Below, piece after piece: positions 11,719-27,004 of a DNA stretch of 27,866 bases (position 1 is its first letter; each line of letters opens with the position of its first letter). Source of the DNA: a virus; UHGV virus genome UHGV-0161508; one strand, written 5' to 3'. Both the position numbers and the translations under genes were made by a program. Below the pieces are notes generated by a model. It was not told the DNA's origin. It was given only the letters and a program-made list of their open reading frames with translations, and ran no database searches.

Positions 11719-12261
11719 TTAATTGGTGAGTCCGGGGATTACGGTTTGCCCGTGCTGTTCAAGGCGTTCAATTCTCGCCAGTAGCTGAGGCTTCTTAATT
11801 TTTCCCCAGCGATTAAGCAGGCGGCCTGACATGCTGGCAACATCCTTCTCTTTCATGTACTCCAGCATTACGGCATTTCTCTCTTCTTCAAATTGACGAT
11901 GACCAACCTGAAGCATGGCGTACATCCAGTTGAATGCGTTGATGTAAGCAATTTTGATACGCATTGCTTCTTTTTTGGTGTAGGACATAACCAAAAGCAT
12001 CAACCCATCCTTGCGGAGACGGTAGAATTTTTGCGGCTTACCATTCTGTAACTCATTGTTTTTATAGCAAAGCTCAAAATTGAGCTTTGTATCAAACTCA
12101 GGAGGGCAAGCTTCTATGGTTCGTTCAATGTCACGAACCACGTTCTTCGGCAGCTTTCCAAATGCTTTTGCCACCATAAAAGAATCTGTAACCGGATCGT
12201 TGTTTGCTACAAAAATTAGGTCTCTGAAATCTATATCGTTAACAACGGTTGGGTAGTTCAT
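11719..12261 (-). CDS. rha: Rha-family phage regulatory protein
   Basis: 180 aa; N-terminal ...VTDSFMVAKAFGKLPKNVVRDIERTIEA...YRLRKDGLMLLVMSYTKKEAMRIKIAYINAF fits the Rha (Phage_pRha) pattern; same position as rha in P22. Confidence 0.65.
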   Translation of the reverse strand: MNYPTVVNDIDFRDLIFVANNDPVTDSFMVAKAFGKLPKNVVRDIERTIEACPPEFDTKLNFELCYKNNELQNGKPQKFYRLRKDGLMLLVMSYTKKEAMRIKIAYINAFNWMYAMLQVGHRQFEEERNAVMLEYMKEKDVASMSGRLLNRWGKIKKPQLLARIERLEQHGQTVIPGLTN

Positions 12262-12408
12262 TGCGTCTTTACCTTTTAGAAAGATGAGCCTGTTCGCACA
12301 GAAAAGCCGTCCCCGAGATGGTCGCCACCATATACGGCAATTCTCAGGCTCAGCTTTCTGAAAGACTCGGGATTGTTACGCGCTGCGATGCGCGGTTTAC
12401 TGCAGATG

Positions 12409-12433
12409 TAAAAAAGCCCCGCGAATGCGAGGC
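12409..12433 (-). terminator. Intrinsic terminator downstream of lysis cassette
   Basis: Minus-strand RNA GCCUCGC-AUUC-GCGGGGC (one G.U pair) followed by UUUUUUA. Confidence 0.55.
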
Positions 12434-12608
12434 TAAATCCTGGTATTTGTAATGAACTGGCTCTTATCTCAACGCAGCCCCTTACCGCGCGCCATATGCT
12501 CAACTTCAAGCATCAGCAATGAGATGTTTAATCTGGATTCACTCCAGAAGTGATCACCACCCTGTCTACAGAGCCAGATGTGAAGGATGATGAGTAAAAT
12601 TATCGCTA

Positions 12609-13046
12609 TCATCGAAGGCATTGCGTCCTGATGTATTCCTGCAGGTAGTTAACCTGCGCGGTTATCCTGTCGATTCCACTTCTGAGACGGTAATAATTGA
12701 GTTCAGCATCTGCTGTAAGTCTTGGGCTTTCTCCATCGCCCATGCTGCTGGCTCCGGTCGTTGACTTTGCACAGGTGGCGGCGACTTGCAGGCGCTTACG
12801 CCCAGCAGAAACATCAGCACGGAGGCTTTCGATAGTCGCGTTAGCATCAGCAAGCTCCTTTGTGTATCTGGCGTCAAGTTCTGCTACATCACGTTGACGC
12901 TTCTGCATGTCAGCGATTGTGGATGTGGCCTTATCGCGCTGCTCTTTGTAGGTCATGGCGTTATCACGGTAATGATTAACAGCCCATGACAGGCTGACGA
13001 TGATGCAGATAACCAGAGCGGAGATAATCGCGGTGACTCTGCTCAT
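12609..13046 (-). CDS. Rz: Spanin inner-membrane subunit Rz (i-spanin)
   Basis: 145 aa; the first roughly 30 residues [29 protein letters not shown] match lambda Rz, the rest is divergent coiled coil; overlaps R stop. Confidence 0.8.
12662..12847 (-). CDS. Rz1: Spanin outer-membrane lipoprotein Rz1 (o-spanin), embedded in Rz in the +1 frame
   Basis: Embedded ORF; from internal Met [25 protein letters not shown]... with lipobox LGVSAC and Pro-rich mature part. Confidence 0.6.
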
Positions 13047-13519
13047 ACCTCAATCTCTCTGACCGTTCCGCCAGCTTCTTTGAATTTTGCAATCAGGCTG
13101 TCAACCTTATGCTCGAACTGACCATAACCAGCGCCAGGCAGTGAAGCCCAGATATTGCTGCAACGGTCGATAGCCTGACGAATATCACCGCGATCAATCA
13201 TCGGTAAAGCGCCACGCTCTTTAATCTGTTGCAATGCCACAGCGTCCTGGCTTTTCGGAGAGAAATCTTTCAGGCCAAGCTGCTTACGATAGGCATCCCA
13301 CCAACGGGAAAGAAGCTGGTAACGGCCTGCAGCTGTTGATTTGAGTTTGGGGTTTAGCGTGACAAGTTTGCGAGGGTGATCTGAGTAATCAGTGAATAGC
13401 TCTCCGCCTACAATGACGTCATAACCATGATTTCTGGTTTTCTGACGTCCGTTATCAGTCCCCTCTGACCACGCCAGCATATCGAGGAACGCCTTACGTT
13501 GATTATTGATCTCCACCAT
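13043..13519 (-). CDS. R: Endolysin R (lytic transglycosylase), lambda-type
   Basis: 158-aa [54 protein letters not shown]... is near-identical to recalled lambda R. Confidence 0.95.
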
Positions 13520-13826
13520 CTTCTACTCCGGCTTTTTTAGCAGCGAAGCGTTTGATAAGCGAACCAATCGAGTCAGTACCGATGTAGCCGATGAACACGC
13601 TCGTTATATAAGCGAGGTTGCTACTTAGTCCGGCGAAGTCGAGAAGGTCACGAATGAACCAGGCGATAATGGCGCACATCGTTGCGTCGATTACTGTTTT
13701 TGTAAACGCACCGCCATTATATCTGCCGCGAAGGTACGCCATTGCAAACGCAAGGATTGCCCCGATGCCTTGTTCCTTTGCCGCGAGAATGGCGGCTAAC
13801 AGGTCATGTTTTTCTGGCATCTTCAT
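13503..13826 (-). CDS. S: Holin/antiholin S (S107/S105 dual start), lambda-type
   Basis: 107-aa [65 protein letters not shown]... is near-identical to lambda S; Met1-Lys-Met3 dual-start motif present. Confidence 0.95.
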
Positions 13827-13951
13827 GTCTTACCCCCAATAAGGGGATTTGCTCTATTTAATTAGGAATAAGGTCGATTACTGATAGAACAAATCCAGGC
13901 TACTGTGTTTAGTAATCAGATTTGTTCGTGACCGATATGCACGGGCAAAAC

Positions 13952-13981
13952 GGCATGAGGTTGTTAGCGCAACCTCATGCC
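13952..13981 (-). terminator. Conserved 12-bp hairpin upstream of S (lambda-like late-leader structure; weak terminator at best)
   Basis: Perfect stem GGCATGAGGTTG / CAACCTCATGCC with 6-nt loop, then GUUUUGCCCG on the minus-strand RNA; a similar hairpin sits just upstream of lambda S. Confidence 0.5.
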
Positions 13982-14117
13982 ACCCGCTTTCACGAAGCCA
14001 GCCATTGCGCTGGTTTTCTTTTATGCAAAGCACACCGCACCGTAGCCACAGCGGATAAGGTGATTATTTTTGTCTGTCTGGTATTTGGTTTGATGTGCTT
14101 TCAGAAAGGTCGTGCTT

Positions 14118-14152
14118 AAAACGCAAAAAGCCCCGAGCTATTAACTCAGGGC
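14118..14152 (-). terminator. tR'-like intrinsic terminator about 55 nt downstream of the pR' start
   Basis: Minus-strand RNA GCCCUGAG-UUAAUAG-CUCGGGGC (one G.U) followed by UUUUUGCGUUUU. Confidence 0.6.
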
Positions 14153-14188
14153 TTTATTTAACGAGTGCATTTATCCATCGTTGTGTCA

Positions 14189-14217
14189 AATTTACCCAAC
14201 TTTATTCAAAAAGTCAA
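14189..14217 (-). promoter_or_regulatory. Late promoter pR' (Q-dependent antitermination site region)
   Basis: Minus strand TTGACT - 17 bp - TAAATT, near-identical to recalled lambda pR' (TTGACTTATTGAATAAAATTGGGTAAATT), directly downstream of Q. Confidence 0.7.
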
Positions 14218-14259
14218 TATCATGCCGTTAATATGTTGCCATCCGTGGCAATCATGCTG

Positions 14260-14883
14260 CTAACGTGTGACCGCATTCAAGATATTGTCTGCGATTGACT
14301 CTTCCTTGTGGCATTGCACCACCAGAGCGTCATACAGCGGCTTAACAGTGCGTGACCAGGTGGGTTGAGTAAGGTTTGGGATTAGCATCGTTACAGCGCG
14401 ATATGCGGCGCTTGCTGGCATTCTTGAATAGCCGACACCTTTGCATCTTCCGCACTCTTTCTCAACAACTCTCCCCCACTGCTCTGTTTTGGCTATATCA
14501 ACCGCACGGCCTGTACCGTGGCAATCTCTGCATCTTGCGCCCGGCGTCGCGGCACTACGGCAATAATCCGCATAAGCGAATGTTGCGAGCACTTGCAGTA
14601 CCTTTGCCTTAGTATTTCCTTCAAGCTTTGCAACGCCACGGTATTTCCCCGATACCTTGTGTGCAAATTGCATCAGATAGTTGATAGCCTTTTGTTTGTC
14701 GTTCTGGCTGAGTTCGTGCTTACCACAGAATGCAGCCATTCCGAATCCGGCTTGTGATTGCGCCATCCCCATAGCAGCCATCACATCAGTACCGGAAAGA
14801 GAGTCAGAAGCCGTAGCCCGTGGTGAGTCGCTCATCATCGGGCTTTTTGGCGAATGAAATTTAGCTACGCTTTCGAGTCTCAT
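14260..14883 (-). CDS. Q: Late antiterminator Q, lambda-type
   Basis: 207-aa ORF MRLESVAKFHSPKSPMMSDSPRATASDSLSGTDVMAAMGMAQSQAGFG... matches recalled lambda Q over its length, including Cys-rich zinc region CRDCHGTGR...CGRCKG. Confidence 0.95.
   Translation of the reverse strand: MRLESVAKFHSPKSPMMSDSPRATASDSLSGTDVMAAMGMAQSQAGFGMAAFCGKHELSQNDKQKAINYLMQFAHKVSGKYRGVAKLEGNTKAKVLQVLATFAYADYCRSAATPGARCRDCHGTGRAVDIAKTEQWGRVVEKECGRCKGVGYSRMPASAAYRAVTMLIPNLTQPTWSRTVKPLYDALVVQCHKEESIADNILNAVTR
14583..14615 (+). promoter_or_regulatory. paQ-like cII-dependent antisense promoter inside Q
   Basis: Plus strand TTGC-GAGCAC-TTGC then 13 nt then TAGTAT, the same architecture as pRE in this window; antisense to Q. 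Confidence 0.45.
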
Positions 14884-15068
14884 GGCCTTCCCCTTTTGCC
14901 CTGTTTGACCATCAGGACGCCGTTAACTATTACGTGACGCTCGCCTTTGCTGTCTCGGTTGTACTTGAGCACTGTTCCTCTTGCGCAGGAAAGCATCCTT
15001 GCCACTTCGGTCTGATTGCCTCGTGTCTGGATAAGAAGCTCTGGTATCGTTTGAATTGTGGCGTTCAT
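14880..15068 (-). CDS. ninH: NinH-like protein
   Basis: 62-aa ORF MNATIQTIPELLIQTRGNQTEVARMLSCARGTVLKYNRDSKGERHVIVNGVLMV resembles lambda NinH (..GNQTEVARRL.CSRGTVRKY...H.IVN.VLMV). Confidence 0.8.
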   Translation of the reverse strand: MNATIQTIPELLIQTRGNQTEVARMLSCARGTVLKYNRDSKGERHVIVNGVLMVKQGKRGRP

Positions 15069-15295
15069 ACGCTCTCCAGTTCGGTGATTTTTATTCCAAG
15101 CCGTCCGCCTGGTACTTTCACACCACGAATTACGCGAATGTCATCGAATTGCTCGTCGTCTTCCGCAAATCCGGCGTGGATAAGGGAGTCGAGTAAACCT
15201 TTCAGGATGTTGTCGAGGTCGCGGCGGCGGGAGTCTGGAAGCAGACCAGTACCGCTTTGCACGACCAATGTTCTCCTGAAAGTCGGCGCGGACAA
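15065..15295 (-). pseudogene. rusA: rusA (Holliday-junction resolvase) remnant lacking the N-terminal ~60%
   Basis: C-terminal 50 aa PDSRRRDLDNILKGLLDSLIHAGFAEDDEQFDDIRVIRGVKVPGGRLGIKITELESV align to the RusA C-terminus (DRRRRDLDN...GGRL.L.ITE). The reading frame opens only 2 codons upstream of a TTG, and no RusA-like N-terminus is present in any frame upstream. Confidence 0.55.
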
Positions 15296-15341
15296 GCTCA
15301 GTCATCGAACTCATTTCTTAAAGCCTCCAATTACTCTCCCC

Positions 15342-15374
15342 CAAATAAAAAGGCCTGCGATTACCAGCAGGCCT
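15342..15374 (-). terminator. tR2-like intrinsic terminator immediately downstream of the helicase gene
   Basis: Minus-strand RNA AGGCCUGC-UGGUAAUC-GCAGGCCU (perfect 8-bp stem) followed by UUUUAUUU. Confidence 0.65.
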
Positions 15375-15402
15375 GTTACAAGCTCAGTGATGTAGATGGT
15401 CA

Positions 15403-16839
15403 TCAGAATCCTCCTTTCTTCTTGGACTGCGGTTCCTCGCGTTCACGGCGGCGCATTTCAGCAGACTGTTGGTCTGTGTCATAAATAGCGCCATTTGCCT
15501 GAATGCAATACACCGTGCCGGTATTGCCATGACGATTGAGACGAAGGATTAGTTCGGTTTCACCAGGTGGAACACTGTCATCAAAAGCACCTTCACGATG
15601 GATCCCCACCCAATAATCGCAATCCTGTTCAATCTGCCCTGTATCTCGTGAGTCACTTGGTAATGGGCGTTTATTGGTTCGACTTTCCAGTGCGCGGTTA
15701 AGCTGCGTCAGAAGCACAACAACGCAATCAAGCTCTTTGGCAAGGCTCTTCAGTCCTTTGGTGATCATGCCGTAAGCAAGGTCGTTGCGATCGGCCTTCT
15801 CAGCGGTCATTAGTGTCAGGTAATCGACCAGAATCATGCCAACACATCCTTTTTCTCGCTTGATTCGACGGCTTTCGCTGACGATTTGAGCCAGAGATAA
15901 TCCCGGCGTGTCGTCGATGTAAAGCAGGTCGATTTCACTCAAGCGATTTGCTGTTTCGATCGCCCTATTGAAGTCACCATCGTAATCACCCTGATAGCCG
16001 TCATCAGCGTCATTTGTCGCCGGAAGGTAAAAAATATTCGGGTTAACACCTGACTTCTGTCCTACCAGTTTTTCCAGTATCTGATCACCTGGCATTTCAA
16101 GGCTGAACATCAGAGCAGGCTTTTTCTCATGCACTGCGCAGTTGATTGCCATCTGGCTGTATAGCGTCGTTTTCCCCATCTTAGGGCGAGCGCCAATGAC
16201 AAACAGAGAGCCTTTCACCAGACCTTTCGGTGACAGCATCCTGTCCAGCGATGGGATCCCTGTGCTCATTCCCCGTTGTTCGCCTGATGGATCAAATCGC
16301 TTCTCAAGGTCGCTAACCCAGTCTTCCATGACCTCACCAAATGAGCGAAGGCCGCGACGCGATCCGGTTTTTGCATGGTCTGTCAGTTGCGTGAAAATCG
16401 CCTGAATAGCTTCGTACTTCTGCGTTGCAGTCATTCCGTTGCGGGAATAGAGCAATTCCGTCGCTTCAGTCATGCGGTTGATGGCGTAGCGTTCCATTGC
16501 GGTTTCGCGAACCTGCATTGCATAAGCAACGATGTTTGCTGCGCTTGGCGTGTTCTTTGCGATCTCAGCGATATAAGCAAAACCGCCAACAGACACCGTT
16601 AACGATTTACGCTCCAGTTCATCGAAAAGCGTCAGGCCATCTACTGGCTTTTGCTCCCGGTGCATTCTGGTTATTTCTTCGAAAAGGATTTTGTGTGGTC
16701 GGCTGTAAAATGAATCAGGCTTCAGCATCGCCAGAACTTTCCGGACGCGCTCACTGCTGTCATCATCCAGAAGCAATCCACCAATCACCGCCTGCTCTGC
16801 CTCGATGCTATGGGGCGGCGCATAAAAATTATCGGTCAT
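15403..16839 (-). CDS. Replicative DNA helicase, DnaB family (P22 gene 12 analogue, lambda P position)
   Basis: DnaB-like N-terminus YAPPHSIEAEQAVIGGLLLD, Walker A GARPKMGKTT, and DnaB C-terminal motifs. Start placed at ATG 16839 (GAGGGTG 7 nt upstream); the track ORF begins 5 codons earlier at a GTG. Confidence 0.85.
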   Translation of the reverse strand: MTDNFYAPPHSIEAEQAVIGGLLLDDDSSERVRKVLAMLKPDSFYSRPHKILFEEITRMHREQKPVDGLTLFDELERKSLTVSVGGFAYIAEIAKNTPSAANIVAYAMQVRETAMERYAINRMTEATELLYSRNGMTATQKYEAIQAIFTQLTDHAKTGSRRGLRSFGEVMEDWVSDLEKRFDPSGEQRGMSTGIPSLDRMLSPKGLVKGSLFVIGARPKMGKTTLYSQMAINCAVHEKKPALMFSLEMPGDQILEKLVGQKSGVNPNIFYLPATNDADDGYQGDYDGDFNRAIETANRLSEIDLLYIDDTPGLSLAQIVSESRRIKREKGCVGMILVDYLTLMTAEKADRNDLAYGMITKGLKSLAKELDCVVVLLTQLNRALESRTNKRPLPSDSRDTGQIEQDCDYWVGIHREGAFDDSVPPGETELILRLNRHGNTGTVYCIQANGAIYDTDQQSAEMRRREREEPQSKKKGGF

Positions 16840-17719
16840 CGTGTTCACCCTCACGAACTTTCAGGTAGGTATTGTCGTTAAGCAGGAAATCAAATCCCTT
16901 TTTGTGCCAGACGGTTCCGCGTTGATGGTTTGGGCGCTCTTCGAACATCCATCGGCAATTTTCGCCTACGTAGCTCAAATAATTTCTCCAGTCCTGCATC
17001 GTGAACCCATGCCCGTCAAGCTGGCGGGTTATCACTCCGGCTTTGCGCCAGAACGTTCGGATCTGGTTTTTACGCTTGTCATTCAGTGCGCGGATTTTTG
17101 GCGCTTCAGGAAGGATTTCGTGGTAAGCATCGACAACATCCTGACAGCTAACGGAAGGTTTTTTCTTGTCAGACTTTTTGTCTGCTGTGGCACTCTCTAA
17201 TACGTCAGTATTAGAGATATTATTTATATTATTGTTTATGGACAACCGTTGGACAACCGTTGGACAATCTCCGCTGAGAGGCGCGCCATTACTGGTGTTT
17301 GCGTTGGACAACCGTTGGACAACCGTTGGACAATTTTTTGCCTGAAAATCGTCATATTTAACGATTGTAAACAGGCTAAATTTCTTCCCCATCGAGCAAA
17401 TATTAAGCATCCCTTTCGACTCAAAAGTCCGTAATAAGCTCCGAACTTTGTTGTCGGGGATGAATGTTTCTCTGACCAGCGACGGGCGTCCAGTTATCAT
17501 CTGACCGCGATCAACAGTTATCGGACCGATATCCGTATTGACGACAGTAGATTCGTGATTAGCCTTGAGGATTAAGTGAAGCCAAAGATGTACTGCCTGA
17601 GAGTCCTTATAGAGCCTGCTGTCCATAAACTGGCGGTGTATAGAGACATACCCCATACTGGATGCCTCCTGATGTTGTACAGGGTTATGCCTGTAATCAG
17701 CTAACTTAACGACGCCCAT
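16829..17719 (-). CDS. Replication initiator, lambda O / P22 gene 18 class, with ori iterons inside the coding sequence
   Basis: 296 aa; position upstream of the helicase; coding region contains iterons that encode the repeated CPTVVQRLS peptide; GGAG 7 nt upstream of the ATG. Confidence 0.8.
   Translation of the reverse strand: MGVVKLADYRHNPVQHQEASSMGYVSIHRQFMDSRLYKDSQAVHLWLHLILKANHESTVVNTDIGPITVDRGQMITGRPSLVRETFIPDNKVRSLLRTFESKGMLNICSMGKKFSLFTIVKYDDFQAKNCPTVVQRLSNANTSNGAPLSGDCPTVVQRLSINNNINNISNTDVLESATADKKSDKKKPSVSCQDVVDAYHEILPEAPKIRALNDKRKNQIRTFWRKAGVITRQLDGHGFTMQDWRNYLSYVGENCRWMFEERPNHQRGTVWHKKGFDFLLNDNTYLKVREGEHDDR
17239..17337. repeat. ori: Origin of replication iterons: two clusters of three 11-bp direct repeats (TGGACAACCGT x2 + TGGACAAT) with adjacent AT-rich tract
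   Basis: Direct repeats at 17239-17271 and 17305-17337 (period 11), flanked by AT-rich sequence at 17196-17238, embedded in the O-like gene as in lambda ori. Confidence 0.8.
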
Positions 17720-17867
17720 GTTTCACTCCTGCTTTGGCTAGTCTGTAAACACCAACAAGGCGCTCTGCGAACGCCCTGTTATTTGCTGCGGCTACCACTA
17801 ATCCCTCAGGTGAATCAGGGTGTCGAATCTCTTCTTTTTCCTGGTATTTCTTACGACGTTTTGTCAT
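17706..17867 (-). CDS. Hypothetical small basic protein (53 aa) between pO/oop and the initiator gene
   Basis: Manual translation MTKRRKKYQEKEEIRHPDSPEGLVVAAANNRAFAERLVGVYRLAKAGVKHGRR; GGAG 7 nt upstream of the ATG; stop overlaps the O-like start. Below the ORF-track length cutoff. Confidence 0.3.
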   Translation of the reverse strand: MTKRRKKYQEKEEIRHPDSPEGLVVAAANNRAFAERLVGVYRLAKAGVKHGRR

Positions 17868-17878
17868 AATGACTCCTG

Positions 17879-17962
17879 TGGATTGATCCAGTAATGACCT
17901 CAGAATTCCATCTGGATTTGTTCAGAACGCTCGGTCTTGCACACCGGGCGTTTTATTTTTTT
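17879..17962 (+). ncRNA. oop: OOP antisense RNA (lambda oop homologue) with its own terminator
   Basis: Plus strand GGATTGATCCAGTAATGACCTCAGAATTCCATCTGGATTTGTTCAGAACGCTCGG... closely matches recalled lambda OOP RNA; ends in hairpin ACGCTCGGT/ACCGGGCGT plus a U-tract; candidate pO -10 CATAAT at 17865-17870. Confidence 0.65.
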
Positions 17963-18381
17963 ATGTGCTTCCATTTTTCACCTCTGCAAATAGCAGCTAT
18001 ATAATTTGGCGTTACTCCATATTTTTTTGATAATGCCCTTGTGTTGAATAAGGGGTGTCTTGGTATATATTCACTAATGATGTTTCTTACATCATCTTCA
18101 GTTAATTTTGCCCTACCATTCCTGCTTCCAAATGCCTGCCTTTTTCTCTCCACCATGTCATTTGCGTTTTGCTGACTTGTCCCAGCACATAAATGAGAAG
18201 GTAAAATACAAGAAGGATTGTCACATGCGTGACGAATTACTAAGCCATCTATATCTTCAAGCTGGATCCCTTTTGCCACACAATAAGCAAATCTATGAGC
18301 AAATACTTTTTTCCCATTAATCCAAACCCTTCCATAACCCTTGCTGTCCTTTAAACCGCCAAATTCCAAACACGGAGTCAT
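17953..18381 (-). CDS. HNH endonuclease (free-standing, homing-endonuclease-like)
   Basis: 142 aa; HNH motif region HRFAYCVAKG...IRHACDNPSCILPSHLCAGTSQQNANDM; AAGGA RBS overlapping the cII stop; occupies the cII-oop junction. Confidence 0.8.
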   Translation of the reverse strand: MTPCLEFGGLKDSKGYGRVWINGKKVFAHRFAYCVAKGIQLEDIDGLVIRHACDNPSCILPSHLCAGTSQQNANDMVERKRQAFGSRNGRAKLTEDDVRNIISEYIPRHPLFNTRALSKKYGVTPNYIAAICRGEKWKHIKK

Positions 18382-18391
18382 AAGACCATCC

Positions 18392-18685
18392 TTAAAAATT
18401 CATGGTTAACTGATTCTCAGCGAAAATATCCGCCGGGCGTTTTTTATTGGTGAGAATCGAAGCAACTTGTCGTGCCAATCGAGCCATATCGTCGTCGACG
18501 ACGCCCCATTCAAGAACAGCAAGCAGCATTGAGAACTTTGGAATCCAATCCCTCTTCCACCTGCTGATCTGCGACTTATCAACTCCCACAGCTTCCGCTG
18601 TCTTCTCAGTTCCAAGCATTGCGATTTTGTTAAGCAACGCACTCTCGATTCTTAGAGCCTCGTTGCGTTTGTTTGCACGAACCAT
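18392..18685 (-). CDS. cII: Transcriptional activator CII (lambda cII / P22 c1 family); start at internal ATG
   Basis: From internal Met: MVRANKRNEALRIESALLNKIAMLGTEKTAEAVGVDKSQISRWKRDWIPKFSMLLAVLEWGVVDDDMARLARQV... matches lambda CII until ...TNKKRPA, then has a different C-terminus (DIFAENQLTMNF). The track ORF has a spurious 29-aa extension that runs over nutR. Confidence 0.9.
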   Translation of the reverse strand: MVRANKRNEALRIESALLNKIAMLGTEKTAEAVGVDKSQISRWKRDWIPKFSMLLAVLEWGVVDDDMARLARQVASILTNKKRPADIFAENQLTMNF

Positions 18686-18695: not shown

Positions 18696-18742
18696 TTCCT
18701 TAACAAATAAGAAGTTATGCGCATCAACTTATGCGCGTTGTA

Positions 18743-18787
18743 TTCCCGCATTTCGGCGGGAATGAGGACCATGACTGTTAAAGAGCA
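18743..18787 (-). promoter_or_regulatory. nutR: nutR (boxA + boxB)
   Basis: Minus strand boxA TGCTCTTTAACA just after the cro stop, then boxB hairpin TTCCCGCCGAAATGCGGGAA. Confidence 0.7.
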
Positions 18788-18993: not shown

Positions 18994-19059
18994 ATTAAAG
19001 AACACTTAAATTATCCACTAAAGGAATCTTAAGTCAAGTTTATTTAAGATGTCTTAACT
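18994..19059. promoter_or_regulatory. Right operator OR1-OR2-OR3 (three 18-bp P22-type c2/cro sites)
   Basis: ATTAAAGAACACTTAAAT (18994-19011), ACTAAAGGAATCTTAAGT (19017-19034), ATTTAAGATGTCTTAACT (19042-19059); inverted half-sites A-T-T-AAG with 4-bp centre; spacing 23 and 25 bp. Confidence 0.75.
19009..19037 (-). promoter_or_regulatory. pR promoter (drives cro-cII-replication operon)
   Basis: Minus strand TTGACT - 17 bp - ATAATT overlapping OR1/OR2; GGAG RBS 7 nt before the cro ATG. Confidence 0.7.
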
Positions 19060-20274: not shown

Positions 20275-20574
20275 ATGACAGTAGTCATTACATATCTGGC
20301 TGACGATAACGCCAGAAATCGCCGCAGAGCACGCAGACAGGCTCAACGTGAACAGGCAATGCAAGAGCAGCGACTGGCGCGAAAAATTGCGCTAAAGCTC
20401 TCTGGTTGCGTCAGAGCAGATAAAGCAGCATCACTCGGAAGCCTTCGCTGCAAGAAGGCAGAAGAAGTCGAGCGTAAACAGAACCGTATTTACTACCGCA
20501 AGCCACGCAGTGAAATGGGTGTGACTTGTGTTGGTCGCCAGAAAATGAAATTAGGCAGCAAACCACTTATTTGA
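20275..20574 (+). CDS. N: Antitermination protein N (arginine-rich-motif family, not P22 gp24-type)
   Basis: 99 aa; N-terminal arginine-rich motif DNARNRRRARRQAQREQ; first gene after pL/nutL; GGAGG 5 nt before the ATG. Confidence 0.8.
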   Translation: MTVVITYLADDNARNRRRARRQAQREQAMQEQRLARKIALKLSGCVRADKAASLGSLRCKKAEEVERKQNRIYYRKPRSEMGVTCVGRQKMKLGSKPLI

Positions 20575-25698: not shown

Positions 25699-26720
25699 AA
25701 ACTTTCACTATTGACTGGCTCAACAAATGCCGCTGCGGGAATAAATCACACACGGTCAAAACAGCTCGCGGAAATGAAACCGCCTTGTGGGATGACGATG
25801 CCGTTAAGTGCAACTCCTGCGGTCGTGGCGGAGTCATTCAAGTCTGTGAGGGGCAGGCGCGAGTTTTATGGGAAACCGATGAAGAGATGGCGGATGGAAA
25901 ACCCATGACCACTATAACCAAAGAGCGACTACTGACAATCAAGCAGTGGCGCGAAACATACGGACCTGATAGCAACGTTGTACTGCCAGCAGAAGAAGCG
26001 GAAGAACTGGCACGAATTGCTCTGGCATCACTGGAAGCAGAACCAGTTGCTTATATTTTCAAACATCCGGCCGGGAAATTATTCTGGGCTTTAACGGATG
26101 AAAGCAATAAAGAGCAAGCGGACGTTATTCCTGTTTATGCTGCCGCGCCTGCGTCGGTTGTGCCGGATGATGCATCAGGGGCGCTTGCTTATGCTTACAA
26201 AGAGCTTACGCCTGAGATTATGCGCGGTCATATCGCTGTATTCGAGCGATATGGAATAGCCCCAAACGATAGCATTACCACAATTCAGGCACTGCGAATC
26301 GCGCTGGATGGCATAGAGCGGAGCGACGCCATGCTTCATGGTGCCGAAACTGTAAGCCAAACTTACAAGTTGCCTCCCCTGTCATCCAGCGAAGTAAACG
26401 ACGCGGCATGGAAATTACACAACATGCTGACTGAACACGGCCTGCTAAATGGGCGTCAGTTCAACAATCTGAAAGGTTGCTTCTATGAGGCATTAAAGGT
26501 CGCAATGCGCAACTATCCGGCAACTCCGGATAGTTGGATAAGCTGTAGTGAGCGAATGCCGGATAAGTTAATTCCGGTAATGGTCATGTATGAAGACGGT
26601 GAGATGTGGTCTGCAATGTGGAATGGCAATCGCTGGGATGATGGCACCGAATACCCGGATCCGCACTCAGTTACGCACTGGCGTGAAATGCCAGCAGCAC
26701 CGCAGCAGGAGGTGAAGTGA
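25695..26720 (+). CDS. DUF551-domain protein with N-terminal Cys-rich (zinc-ribbon-like) region
   Basis: 341 aa; N-terminus CRCGNKSH...CNSCGRGG; C-terminus WISCSERMPDKLIPVMVMYEDGEMWSAMWNGNRWDDG...VTHWREMP fits the DUF551 pattern common in lambdoid ea regions. Confidence 0.6.
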   Translation: MKTFTIDWLNKCRCGNKSHTVKTARGNETALWDDDAVKCNSCGRGGVIQVCEGQARVLWETDEEMADGKPMTTITKERLLTIKQWRETYGPDSNVVLPAEEAEELARIALASLEAEPVAYIFKHPAGKLFWALTDESNKEQADVIPVYAAAPASVVPDDASGALAYAYKELTPEIMRGHIAVFERYGIAPNDSITTIQALRIALDGIERSDAMLHGAETVSQTYKLPPLSSSEVNDAAWKLHNMLTEHGLLNGRQFNNLKGCFYEALKVAMRNYPATPDSWISCSERMPDKLIPVMVMYEDGEMWSAMWNGNRWDDGTEYPDPHSVTHWREMPAAPQQEVK

Positions 26721-27004
26721 TGGACTCCTTCGCGAAATATACGATTATTGACTGGATAGCATTCCTTCAGGTTTTGCTCATCTGGTTTTATATGGCTTAC
26801 AGGAGTGGGCAGTGGATTGTCAGTGTAGCCTGTAGCAAGGGATGGCGTTGGTGGAACAGAAAGAATAAAAAAGCACTGGCATTGGATTCGTTTTACGAAG
26901 CATTCAATCTTAACAGCCTTCAGCCTGGTTCTGTCATTGTAGTCACCACTCAAAGCGGCATGACGATACAAATTCACAAGCCAAAGGAGGAAGGTCGTGG
27001 CTAA
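26717..27004 (+). CDS. Hypothetical protein with N-terminal hydrophobic segment (95 aa)
   Basis: ORF with hydrophobic stretch IIDWIAFLQVLLIWFYMAY; translationally coupled to both flanking genes. Confidence 0.45.
   Translation: MMDSFAKYTIIDWIAFLQVLLIWFYMAYRSGQWIVSVACSKGWRWWNRKNKKALALDSFYEAFNLNSLQPGSVIVVTTQSGMTIQIHKPKEEGRG

Follow-up and report, generated by a model that had tools for sequence, protein, structure and literature searches.

We analyzed the interval between the DnaB-like replicative helicase gene and the late-gene antiterminator gene Q in the virus genome UHGV-0161508, a stretch of 27,866 nucleotides that we refer to, at its full length, as the window. This interval is very probably the remnant of an ordinary lambdoid nin region from which a single spontaneous deletion removed ~2.1 to 2.6 kb. 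The event would have joined two copies of a 9-bp direct repeat, TTCCAGACT, with loss of the 3′ two-thirds of the DUF7301 gene, about six whole nin genes, and the first 62 codons of rusA; the whole genes lost would be, depending on the ancestor, NinB/Orf, an N6-adenine methyltransferase, NinE/NinF or HNH genes, and DUF1364 or Roi. The ninA-like open reading frame (ORF) with the terminator tR2, ninH, and Q would have been kept. All relevant genes from the helicase through Q lie on the minus strand, and the ORF coordinates, together with the Pfam matches, bear out the figure of ~520 bp given by the initial annotation for the distance between the end of the DnaB-like gene (15403) and Q (14883), as compared with ~2.6 to 3.8 kb in the relatives examined. 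The features of the interval, from the helicase gene to Q, are as follows.

15403–16854, minus strand: DnaB-like replicative helicase gene, analogue of HK620 P and P22 gene 12 (Pfam DnaB_C, 3.7e-60, and DnaB, 1.2e-30; RefSeq CDS WP_231529486.1)
15311–15403, minus strand: ninA-like ORF, intact, 30 codons, MTIYITELVTGLLVIAGLFIWGRVIGGFKK (phrog_5907, 4.4e-17)
15341–15374, minus strand: intrinsic terminator tR2, with the stem-loop at 15374–15351 and the T tract at 15350–15341 (terminator scan)
15241–15314, minus strand: 5′ fragment of the DUF7301 gene, codons 1–28 of 75 (Pfam DUF7301, PF23975, 1.6e-07, profile positions 1–39 of 65; phrog_1785)
15141–15314, minus strand: chimeric ORF made by the deletion, 57 codons (ORF list and translation)
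15232–15240, minus strand: deletion junction with the 9-bp microhomology TTCCAGACT (three-line junction alignments against Dewey, AR_0118, and CP53)
15065–15240, minus strand: rusA 3′ remnant, residues 63–120 plus the stop codon, a pseudogene (tblastn, Pfam, and a RefSeq pseudogene at matching coordinates)
14880–15068, minus strand: ninH, intact, 62 codons (Pfam Phage_NinH, PF06322, 2e-24, profile positions 1–60 of 60)
14260–14883, minus strand: lambda-type late-gene antiterminator Q, intact, 207 codons (Pfam Antiterm, PF03589, 1.3e-57)

Every element that the initial annotation had named is present, including ninH, which matches its Pfam profile over the full length. The ninA-like ORF, the DUF7301 5′ fragment, and the 57-codon chimera had been overlooked, and we suggest that the interval be annotated as ninA with tR2, a DUF7301′–′rusA deletion fusion (pseudogene), ninH, and Q.

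The initial annotation had suggested a natural nin-type deletion whose endpoints were to be mapped by alignment, and both endpoints could be placed against three intact relatives: phage Dewey (PQ850600) and the prophages of Escherichia coli AR_0118 and CP53. In Dewey, the order is ninA-like ORF, DUF7301 (75 amino acids), NinB, methyltransferase, two small ORFs, two HNH genes, RusA (120 amino acids), NinH, and Q, and all three relatives carry both copies of TTCCAGACT within an intact ninA–DUF7301–NinB…RusA–NinH–Q arrangement. They share both junction flanks with the window at 98 to 99% identity, but, unlike the window, keep the 2,110 to 2,630 bp between them. Thus, window positions 15404–15228 match the Dewey ninA and DUF7301 sequence at 98.3% identity (the AR_0118 match on this side reaches window position 15450, at 98.7%), and positions 15240–14860 match the Dewey rusA 3′ end, ninH, and Q at 98.4%. 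The left and right Dewey alignments overlap by 13 bases, and the DNA missing from the window amounts to 2,392 bp relative to Dewey, 2,110 bp relative to AR_0118, and 2,630 bp relative to CP53. The likeness to Dewey does not extend to the replication module, which in that phage differs from the window by encoding a DnaC-like loader.

At the junction, the left parent reads …GGTCTGC TTCCAGACT T CCG ACTGG…, the right parent reads …GCAGACG TTCCAGACT C CCG CCGCC…, and the window reads …GGTCTGC TTCCAGACT C CCG CCGCC…. Since the base that follows the repeat is the rusA-type C, the crossover is placed inside TTCCAGACT. In the intact relatives, this repeat occurs once in DUF7301, the second gene after the helicase, at codons 25–28, and once in rusA, at codons 63–66, and it extends to 13 bp if one mismatch is allowed. 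DUF7301 codon 28 is joined out of frame to rusA codon 63. The left endpoint therefore lies inside DUF7301, and, as a consequence, the 76-amino acid RusA-like ORF is a hybrid and an out-of-frame chimera of 57 codons has arisen. As far as the junction, the DUF7301 fragment is 98.3 to 98.7% identical to the DNA of Dewey, AR_0118, and CP53, and its ATG (15314) overlaps the stop codon of the ninA-like ORF (ATGA). Instead of a complete DUF7301 protein of ~75 amino acids, however, it provides residues 1–28 followed by out-of-frame rusA sequence: the first 29 residues of the chimera match DUF7301 (1–28 by derivation and Pro29 by chance), and the last 28 are translated from rusA in the wrong frame. The suggestion of a natural deletion that collapsed the nin region and left a rusA pseudogene thus held up with refinements, among them that the left endpoint falls inside DUF7301 and that tR2 has been retained.

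The deletion would have occurred by illegitimate recombination or replication slippage, processes that typically leave a short direct repeat at the junction. We considered whether TTCCAGACT is a special site and rejected the idea, as intact nin regions hold between 21 and 68 comparable direct-repeat pairs of at least 9 bp each. Since such repeats are plentiful, the junction is an ordinary substrate for either process. Programmed frameshifting that would yield a DUF7301–RusA fusion is likewise unsupported, as the junction is a deletion scar and the two genes are separate in the relatives, more than 2 kb apart.

We then asked what is left of rusA. The ORF at 15065–15295 is present, with its frame opening two codons before a TTG, and the claim that it holds a RusA C-terminal fragment without an N terminus proved correct. 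Using a full-length phage RusA as the tblastn query, homology was confined to 15241–15068, corresponding to residues 63–120 (2.5e-33), and nothing resembling residues 1–62 was detected anywhere in the 27.9-kb window. Against the Pfam RusA profile (PF05866), the 76-amino acid product covers positions 77–123 of 124 only. Half of a single domain of ~120 residues is gone, and with it the native ATG; the upstream ORF that is translationally coupled is read in another frame. The first 18 codons of the 76-amino acid ORF are DUF7301 DNA read in a different frame and have no homologue. RusA homologues retrieved from databases were mostly 120 amino acids long (one cluster holds 2,481 member sequences); the best of them cover ~76% of the 76-amino acid ORF, and none spans its first 18 residues or shares the short form. 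The exact 57- and 76-amino acid products were both absent from ~15 billion proteins. We therefore rejected the short ORF as an intact, conserved protein: it has no homologue of that form, no N terminus, and no occurrence elsewhere in the collections searched. By far the best reading is that the remnant is a pseudogene, in agreement with RefSeq, which lists it as "incomplete; missing N-terminus."

An expressed and functional mini-protein, such as a truncated or dominant-negative resolvase made from this ORF or as a product of ~65 amino acids from an internal start, is very unlikely. In its favor, the remnant retains Asp70, Asp72, and Asp91 in the contexts RRRD70-L-D72-N and E-D-D91-E. The alignment of the full-length phage RusA with its E. 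coli counterpart (PDB 1Q8R) is free of gaps, so the residue numbering carries over directly; these three are the established catalytic acidic residues of the enzyme, reportedly described by Bolt et al. 1999. Other short or fused RusA forms also exist in E. coli, including an internally deleted one of 78 amino acids. With respect to translation, the annotated TTG at 15295 has no Shine–Dalgarno sequence. A fortuitous AGGAG, lying in the Gln-Glu-Asn codons of DUF7301 at 15277–15273, stands 4 nucleotides before an in-frame TTG (15268) and 10 nucleotides before an in-frame GTG (15262). Ribosomes coupled to ninA would cross the rusA stretch in a different frame. Together with the missing half-domain, the out-of-frame origin of the first 18 codons, the absence of the exact product from the proteins searched, and the occurrence of the junction in a single genome, these features argue against a working mini-protein and for the pseudogene.

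To place the deletion among related genomes, we turned to its source and its distribution. The 6,591-bp locus used for comparison (window positions 11860–18450) matches the E. coli W46 chromosome (NZ_CP163115.1, a finished circular chromosome) at 100% identity, and window position x corresponds to record position x + 3,508,924. The junction was found in one of 5,426 complete E. coli genomes, that of W46, and in none of 50,697 phage records, and an exact search with a 40-mer across it gave no match in GTDB genome contigs, IMG/VR viral contigs, or JGI metagenome contigs. By comparison, 24 complete E. coli genomes contain at least 80% of the Dewey ninA–DUF7301–NinB segment. Among the listed genomes with the same replication and Q/lysis modules (~98% identity), the region matched by our 5.4-kb query spans 7.1 to 10.2 kb, as against at most 4.9 kb in the query, the largest span including an insertion sequence element; in these listed genomes, the distance from the helicase gene to Q is at least 2.2 kb longer than in the window. 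The relatives inspected have 9 to 11 nin genes or annotated features in the interval, with one of these frameshifted in two relatives. An insertion in the relatives, rather than a deletion in the window, was rejected, since DUF7301 and rusA, the genes that border the junction, are truncated here and full length elsewhere. The event is a recent, lineage-specific deletion and not an ancestral compact form.

Several points weigh against our interpretation. The junction is known from one assembly only, the one from which the window itself derives, and it may have arisen by assembly error or by deletion during laboratory culture. No direct ancestor with both flanks at 100% identity was found among the genomes compared, so the deleted content of 2.1 to 2.6 kb had to be deduced from mosaic relatives. 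The AGGAG at 15277–15273 might serve a weak internal start and allow slight translation of a RusA fragment of ~65 amino acids, and the effects on Q timing and lysogeny that we discuss below are inferred. Nevertheless, we consider it highly improbable that the collapse is an artifact, that is, a misassembly or a deletion in the sequenced culture in place of the natural prophage state. That W46 is the sole assembly with the junction would fit such an origin, but a 9-bp repeat is far too short for an assembler to collapse 2.1 to 2.6 kb across it, the record is a finished circular chromosome, and comparable independent deletions occur elsewhere, with ninB joined to rusA in strain PEC011 and the helicase gene joined to rusA in GCA_030286185.1.

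These two cases, along with the DUF1364::rusA protein P0017, are other, independent nin collapses in which the right end falls inside rusA and ninH and Q are kept. They differ from W46 in their left endpoints and microhomologies and in being in-frame fusions. In PEC011 (NZ_CM127800.1; locus L002, ~2620–2928), the NinB N terminus (MRKLTFELRSHIHQQNAIHAVQQI) runs on in frame into RusA at …QQIIRQLKLD…; the two were apparently joined across a repeat that encodes VQQI in both, and ninH and Q follow. In GCA_030286185.1 (JASWFC010000020.1; locus L012, 4001–4396), a prophage with the same O/cII/cro module has lost 3,922 bp, with the first ~80 codons of the DnaB-like helicase gene now in frame with the last ~51 codons of rusA. 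That deletion removes most of the helicase gene, ninA with tR2, and the whole nin region, so that Q stands directly behind a replication-defective stub. It could be argued from the four cases (W46, PEC011, GCA_030286185.1, and the DUF1364::rusA fusion) that the rusA 3′ half with ninH and Q is a preferred, selected right boundary of repeated nin collapses; if so, the RusA C-terminal segment left behind, with its complete Asp70/Asp72/Asp91 triad, would be expressed as a fusion or mini-protein with residual or new activity. We hold this to be most doubtful. The W46 fusion is out of frame and a singleton, and, because the cases were found by searching with the RusA C terminus, the shared boundary should be regarded as an ascertainment effect unless evidence to the contrary emerges.

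Besides the DUF1364::rusA fusion, there are several RusA forms with internal deletions. The 78-amino acid form (P0088; loci L013–L016, 4001–4237) has an in-frame internal deletion between two stretches that encode Arg-Arg-Arg, giving …NTYWRRR|DLDNILK… without roughly residues 23–66. It is widespread, being listed for 173 blocks of the assembly collection and for 99 contigs of the protein table and occurring on the chromosomes of several strains, and is flanked by a DUF968 gene and a Q of 273 amino acids. The 80-residue profile phrog_1532 may represent this short form.

The terminator is, judged by its sequence, lambda tR2. The scan gave a hairpin with an 8-bp stem (six G-C pairs) and an 8-nucleotide loop, followed by TTTTATTT; the computed fold has an energy of −15.7 kcal/mol (z = −2.05). 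Hairpin and tail do not differ by a single base from lambda 40596–40619 plus tail, within a 71-bp lambda match of 95.8% identity, and the homologous site in HK620 is annotated as tR2, inside ninA and directly after gene P. The scan, the fold, and the lambda identity all agree with the strong terminator that had been recognized at 15342–15374. That it directly follows the helicase gene had been described as part of the collapse but is the normal layout of HK620-type phages and not a product of the deletion.

The hairpin sits within the coding sequence of the ninA-like ORF and not in an intergenic spacer. This ORF has an AGGAGG 6 nucleotides upstream of its ATG, which begins with the last base of the helicase stop codon (TGATG), and its 30-amino acid peptide occurs in the exact form in more than 490 contigs; ninA is annotated at the corresponding place in the HK620 and Salmonella phage L records. 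The peptide is small and hydrophobic, and the DNA of the tR2 stem-loop encodes its …TGLLVIAGLF… segment. In lambda, a counterpart ORF of 26 codons, MTIYITELITGLLVIAGLFIWGRGKS, lies between ren and ninB (lambda locus L005, 1067–1148), overlapping each of them by ATGA, and is unannotated in NC_001416.

The retention of tR2 bears on how the deletion should be classified. Like the laboratory N-independence mutations nin5 and nin3 of lambda, the window has a kilobase-scale deletion that lies downstream of the replication genes and stops short of Q; dispensable nin genes are lost, and Q comes to lie closer to pR. The endpoints are in DUF7301 on the side of the helicase gene and in rusA on the side of ninH and Q. 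Lambda nin5 removes tR2 (~lambda 40.5–43.3 kb, coordinates that do not enter the evidence); the equivalents of tR3 and tR4 are Rho-dependent, and their positions likewise do not enter the evidence. Compared to nin5, the window keeps tR2 (lambda-equivalent 40596–40619), so that N independence is not expected; its right endpoint lies in rusA, the counterpart of lambda ninG/rap, and not in ninI; and the deletion is in a P22-like prophage of a natural isolate. The view that this is a classical nin-type deletion that freed Q from N antitermination is almost certainly wrong: the loss of most nin genes between the replication genes and Q fits it, as might a loss of Rho-dependent termination regions by analogy with lambda (Cheng et al. 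1995, to the extent cited in PMC8022706 and PMC11016777), but the hairpin and T tract of tR2 are wholly retained and identical to those of lambda, the coding strand of the intact Dewey has no intrinsic terminator-like site other than tR2 from the replication genes to Q, and the N-like gene and nutR are intact. Since tR2 is kept, the event is a deletion in the nin region and not a classical N-independence (nin) deletion.

The initial annotation had also pointed out that Q expression depends on readthrough of a single terminator. This is so, but it is not caused by the deletion, since the intact Dewey has the same configuration as far as intrinsic terminators are concerned. The other regulatory elements lie outside the collapsed interval. 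A pR-like promoter at 19037–19010 is followed by cro, nutR, cII, O, the helicase gene, ninA with tR2, ninH, and Q, and three further features belong to this circuit.

18742–18787, minus strand: nutR, with a boxA-like TGCTCTTTAA and a boxB hairpin, between cro and cII (match to the HK620 annotation)
20275–20574, plus strand: gene for an N-like antitermination protein, first of the leftward operon (phrog_271, "anti-termination protein N-like," 4.8e-37)
14127–14217, minus strand: pR′-like promoter (14217–14189) and tR′-like terminator (14155–14127), downstream of Q (promoter and terminator scan)

A stretch of 104 bp that is 100% identical to HK620 covers all but the first base of the annotated nutR, and that first base of boxA is T in the window and C in HK620. 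In HK620, pR′ and qut are annotated at the corresponding position downstream of Q, and in the window Q with its downstream region is ~97% identical to lambda DNA. The ninH ATG overlaps the rusA stop codon (ATGA) and has its own GGAG 5 nucleotides upstream, and the Q ATG overlaps the ninH stop codon. By these sequence matches, the regulatory chain from N/nut through tR2 to Q is intact.

In this operon, RNA polymerase that starts at pR and is modified at nutR by the N-like protein would still have to read through tR2, and it would arrive at ninH and Q ~2.1 to 2.6 kb sooner. The 57-codon chimera would be translationally coupled to ninA, and the rusA remnant would have neither a promoter nor a start of its own. 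The coupled translation chain of the nin genes would be broken, as the chimera stops at 15141, 70 nucleotides before the ninH ATG. The phage would now be without recombination functions of its own from NinB/Orf and RusA and without the methyltransferase and several small genes.

The lost nin genes are described as nonessential in lambda (PMC8022706), and an engineered P22 that lacks ninB–ninH yields viable phage with reduced lysogeny in vitro (PMC11016777). Since the genes are dispensable in both lambda and P22, the W46 prophage is probably still viable. The engineered P22 resembles the window in that nin genes were removed from a P22-type phage, but ninH was removed as well and a kanamycin cassette was inserted; its reduced lysogeny was ascribed by the authors to terminator loss (PMC11016777). 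For the lambda nin region, Cheng et al. 1995 are cited (in PMC8022706 and PMC11016777) as having described regions of Rho-dependent termination; if the DNA deleted here held such sites, lysogenization might be altered.

Among known phages, HK620 (AF335538) offers a close comparison. Its nin region runs P, ninA with tR2, ninB, ninE, ninF, roi, hkbD, rus, ninH, and Q. It shares with the window the type of helicase, the arrangement of ninA and tR2, and a rusA 3′ end, ninH, and Q that are 96.6 to 96.9% identical at the DNA level. From P/helicase to Q, however, it has 2.6 kb and nine intact genes; in the window, the 520 bp hold two genes that are intact and fragments of two others. Unlike the window, HK620 has no DUF7301 sequence. 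The window allele is best classified as a natural allele, produced by deletion, of an HK620-like prophage nin region. It is an ordinary, strain-specific, microhomology-mediated prophage deletion, already flagged as a pseudogene in RefSeq and not unique in kind. Its importance beyond correct annotation is slight, and neither a new mechanism nor a new family is implied. It does illustrate, cleanly and from nature, how a deletion mediated by microhomology can strike the dispensable nin region and leave a P22-like prophage otherwise intact: NinB/Orf, RusA, and the methyltransferase can be lost with the N/nut–tR2–Q chain kept. It is also a possible natural test case for how the tR2–Q distance and gene content relate to Q timing and lysogeny frequency.

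The prophage that harbors the deletion is P22/HK620-like and ~39 kb long, adjoins a tRNA-Arg gene and intS, and is annotated completely from intS to torI in RefSeq. It carries the genes for integrase, tailspike, DNA-transfer proteins, P22-type coat, scaffold, portal, and terminase, together with the ant/arc/mnt immunity genes and a lambda-type lysis cassette. The early genes include Q, ninH, the DnaB-like helicase, an O-like initiator, cII, cro, a cI-like repressor, kil, and recT. RefSeq marks only two pseudogenes, one of which is the rusA fragment. The other is a frameshifted hypothetical protein gene of the early-left region at window positions 26635–26813 on the plus strand (record positions 3535559–3535737).

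No Rfam family was returned when the complete window was scanned at gathering thresholds. The cII ORF in the mechanically generated list begins at ATG 18772 on the minus strand and runs through nutR; the lambda-like start (MVRANKRNEAL…) is ATG 18685, and this shorter form is the one annotated by RefSeq. A 142-amino acid HNH endonuclease gene occupies 17953–18381 on the minus strand, with cII on one side and, on the other, the small ORF located before the O-like gene. Most close relatives begin to match only downstream of it, from query position 509, and HK620 has no gene at this place; the gene resembles a mobile HNH insertion. On the strand opposite to it, there is a strong terminator-like hairpin at 17924–17954. 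Within the O-like replication initiator gene, an exact 30-bp direct repeat occurs twice, at 17239–17268 and 17305–17334; the two copies are probably part of the replication-origin iterons, such as HK620 annotates inside O.

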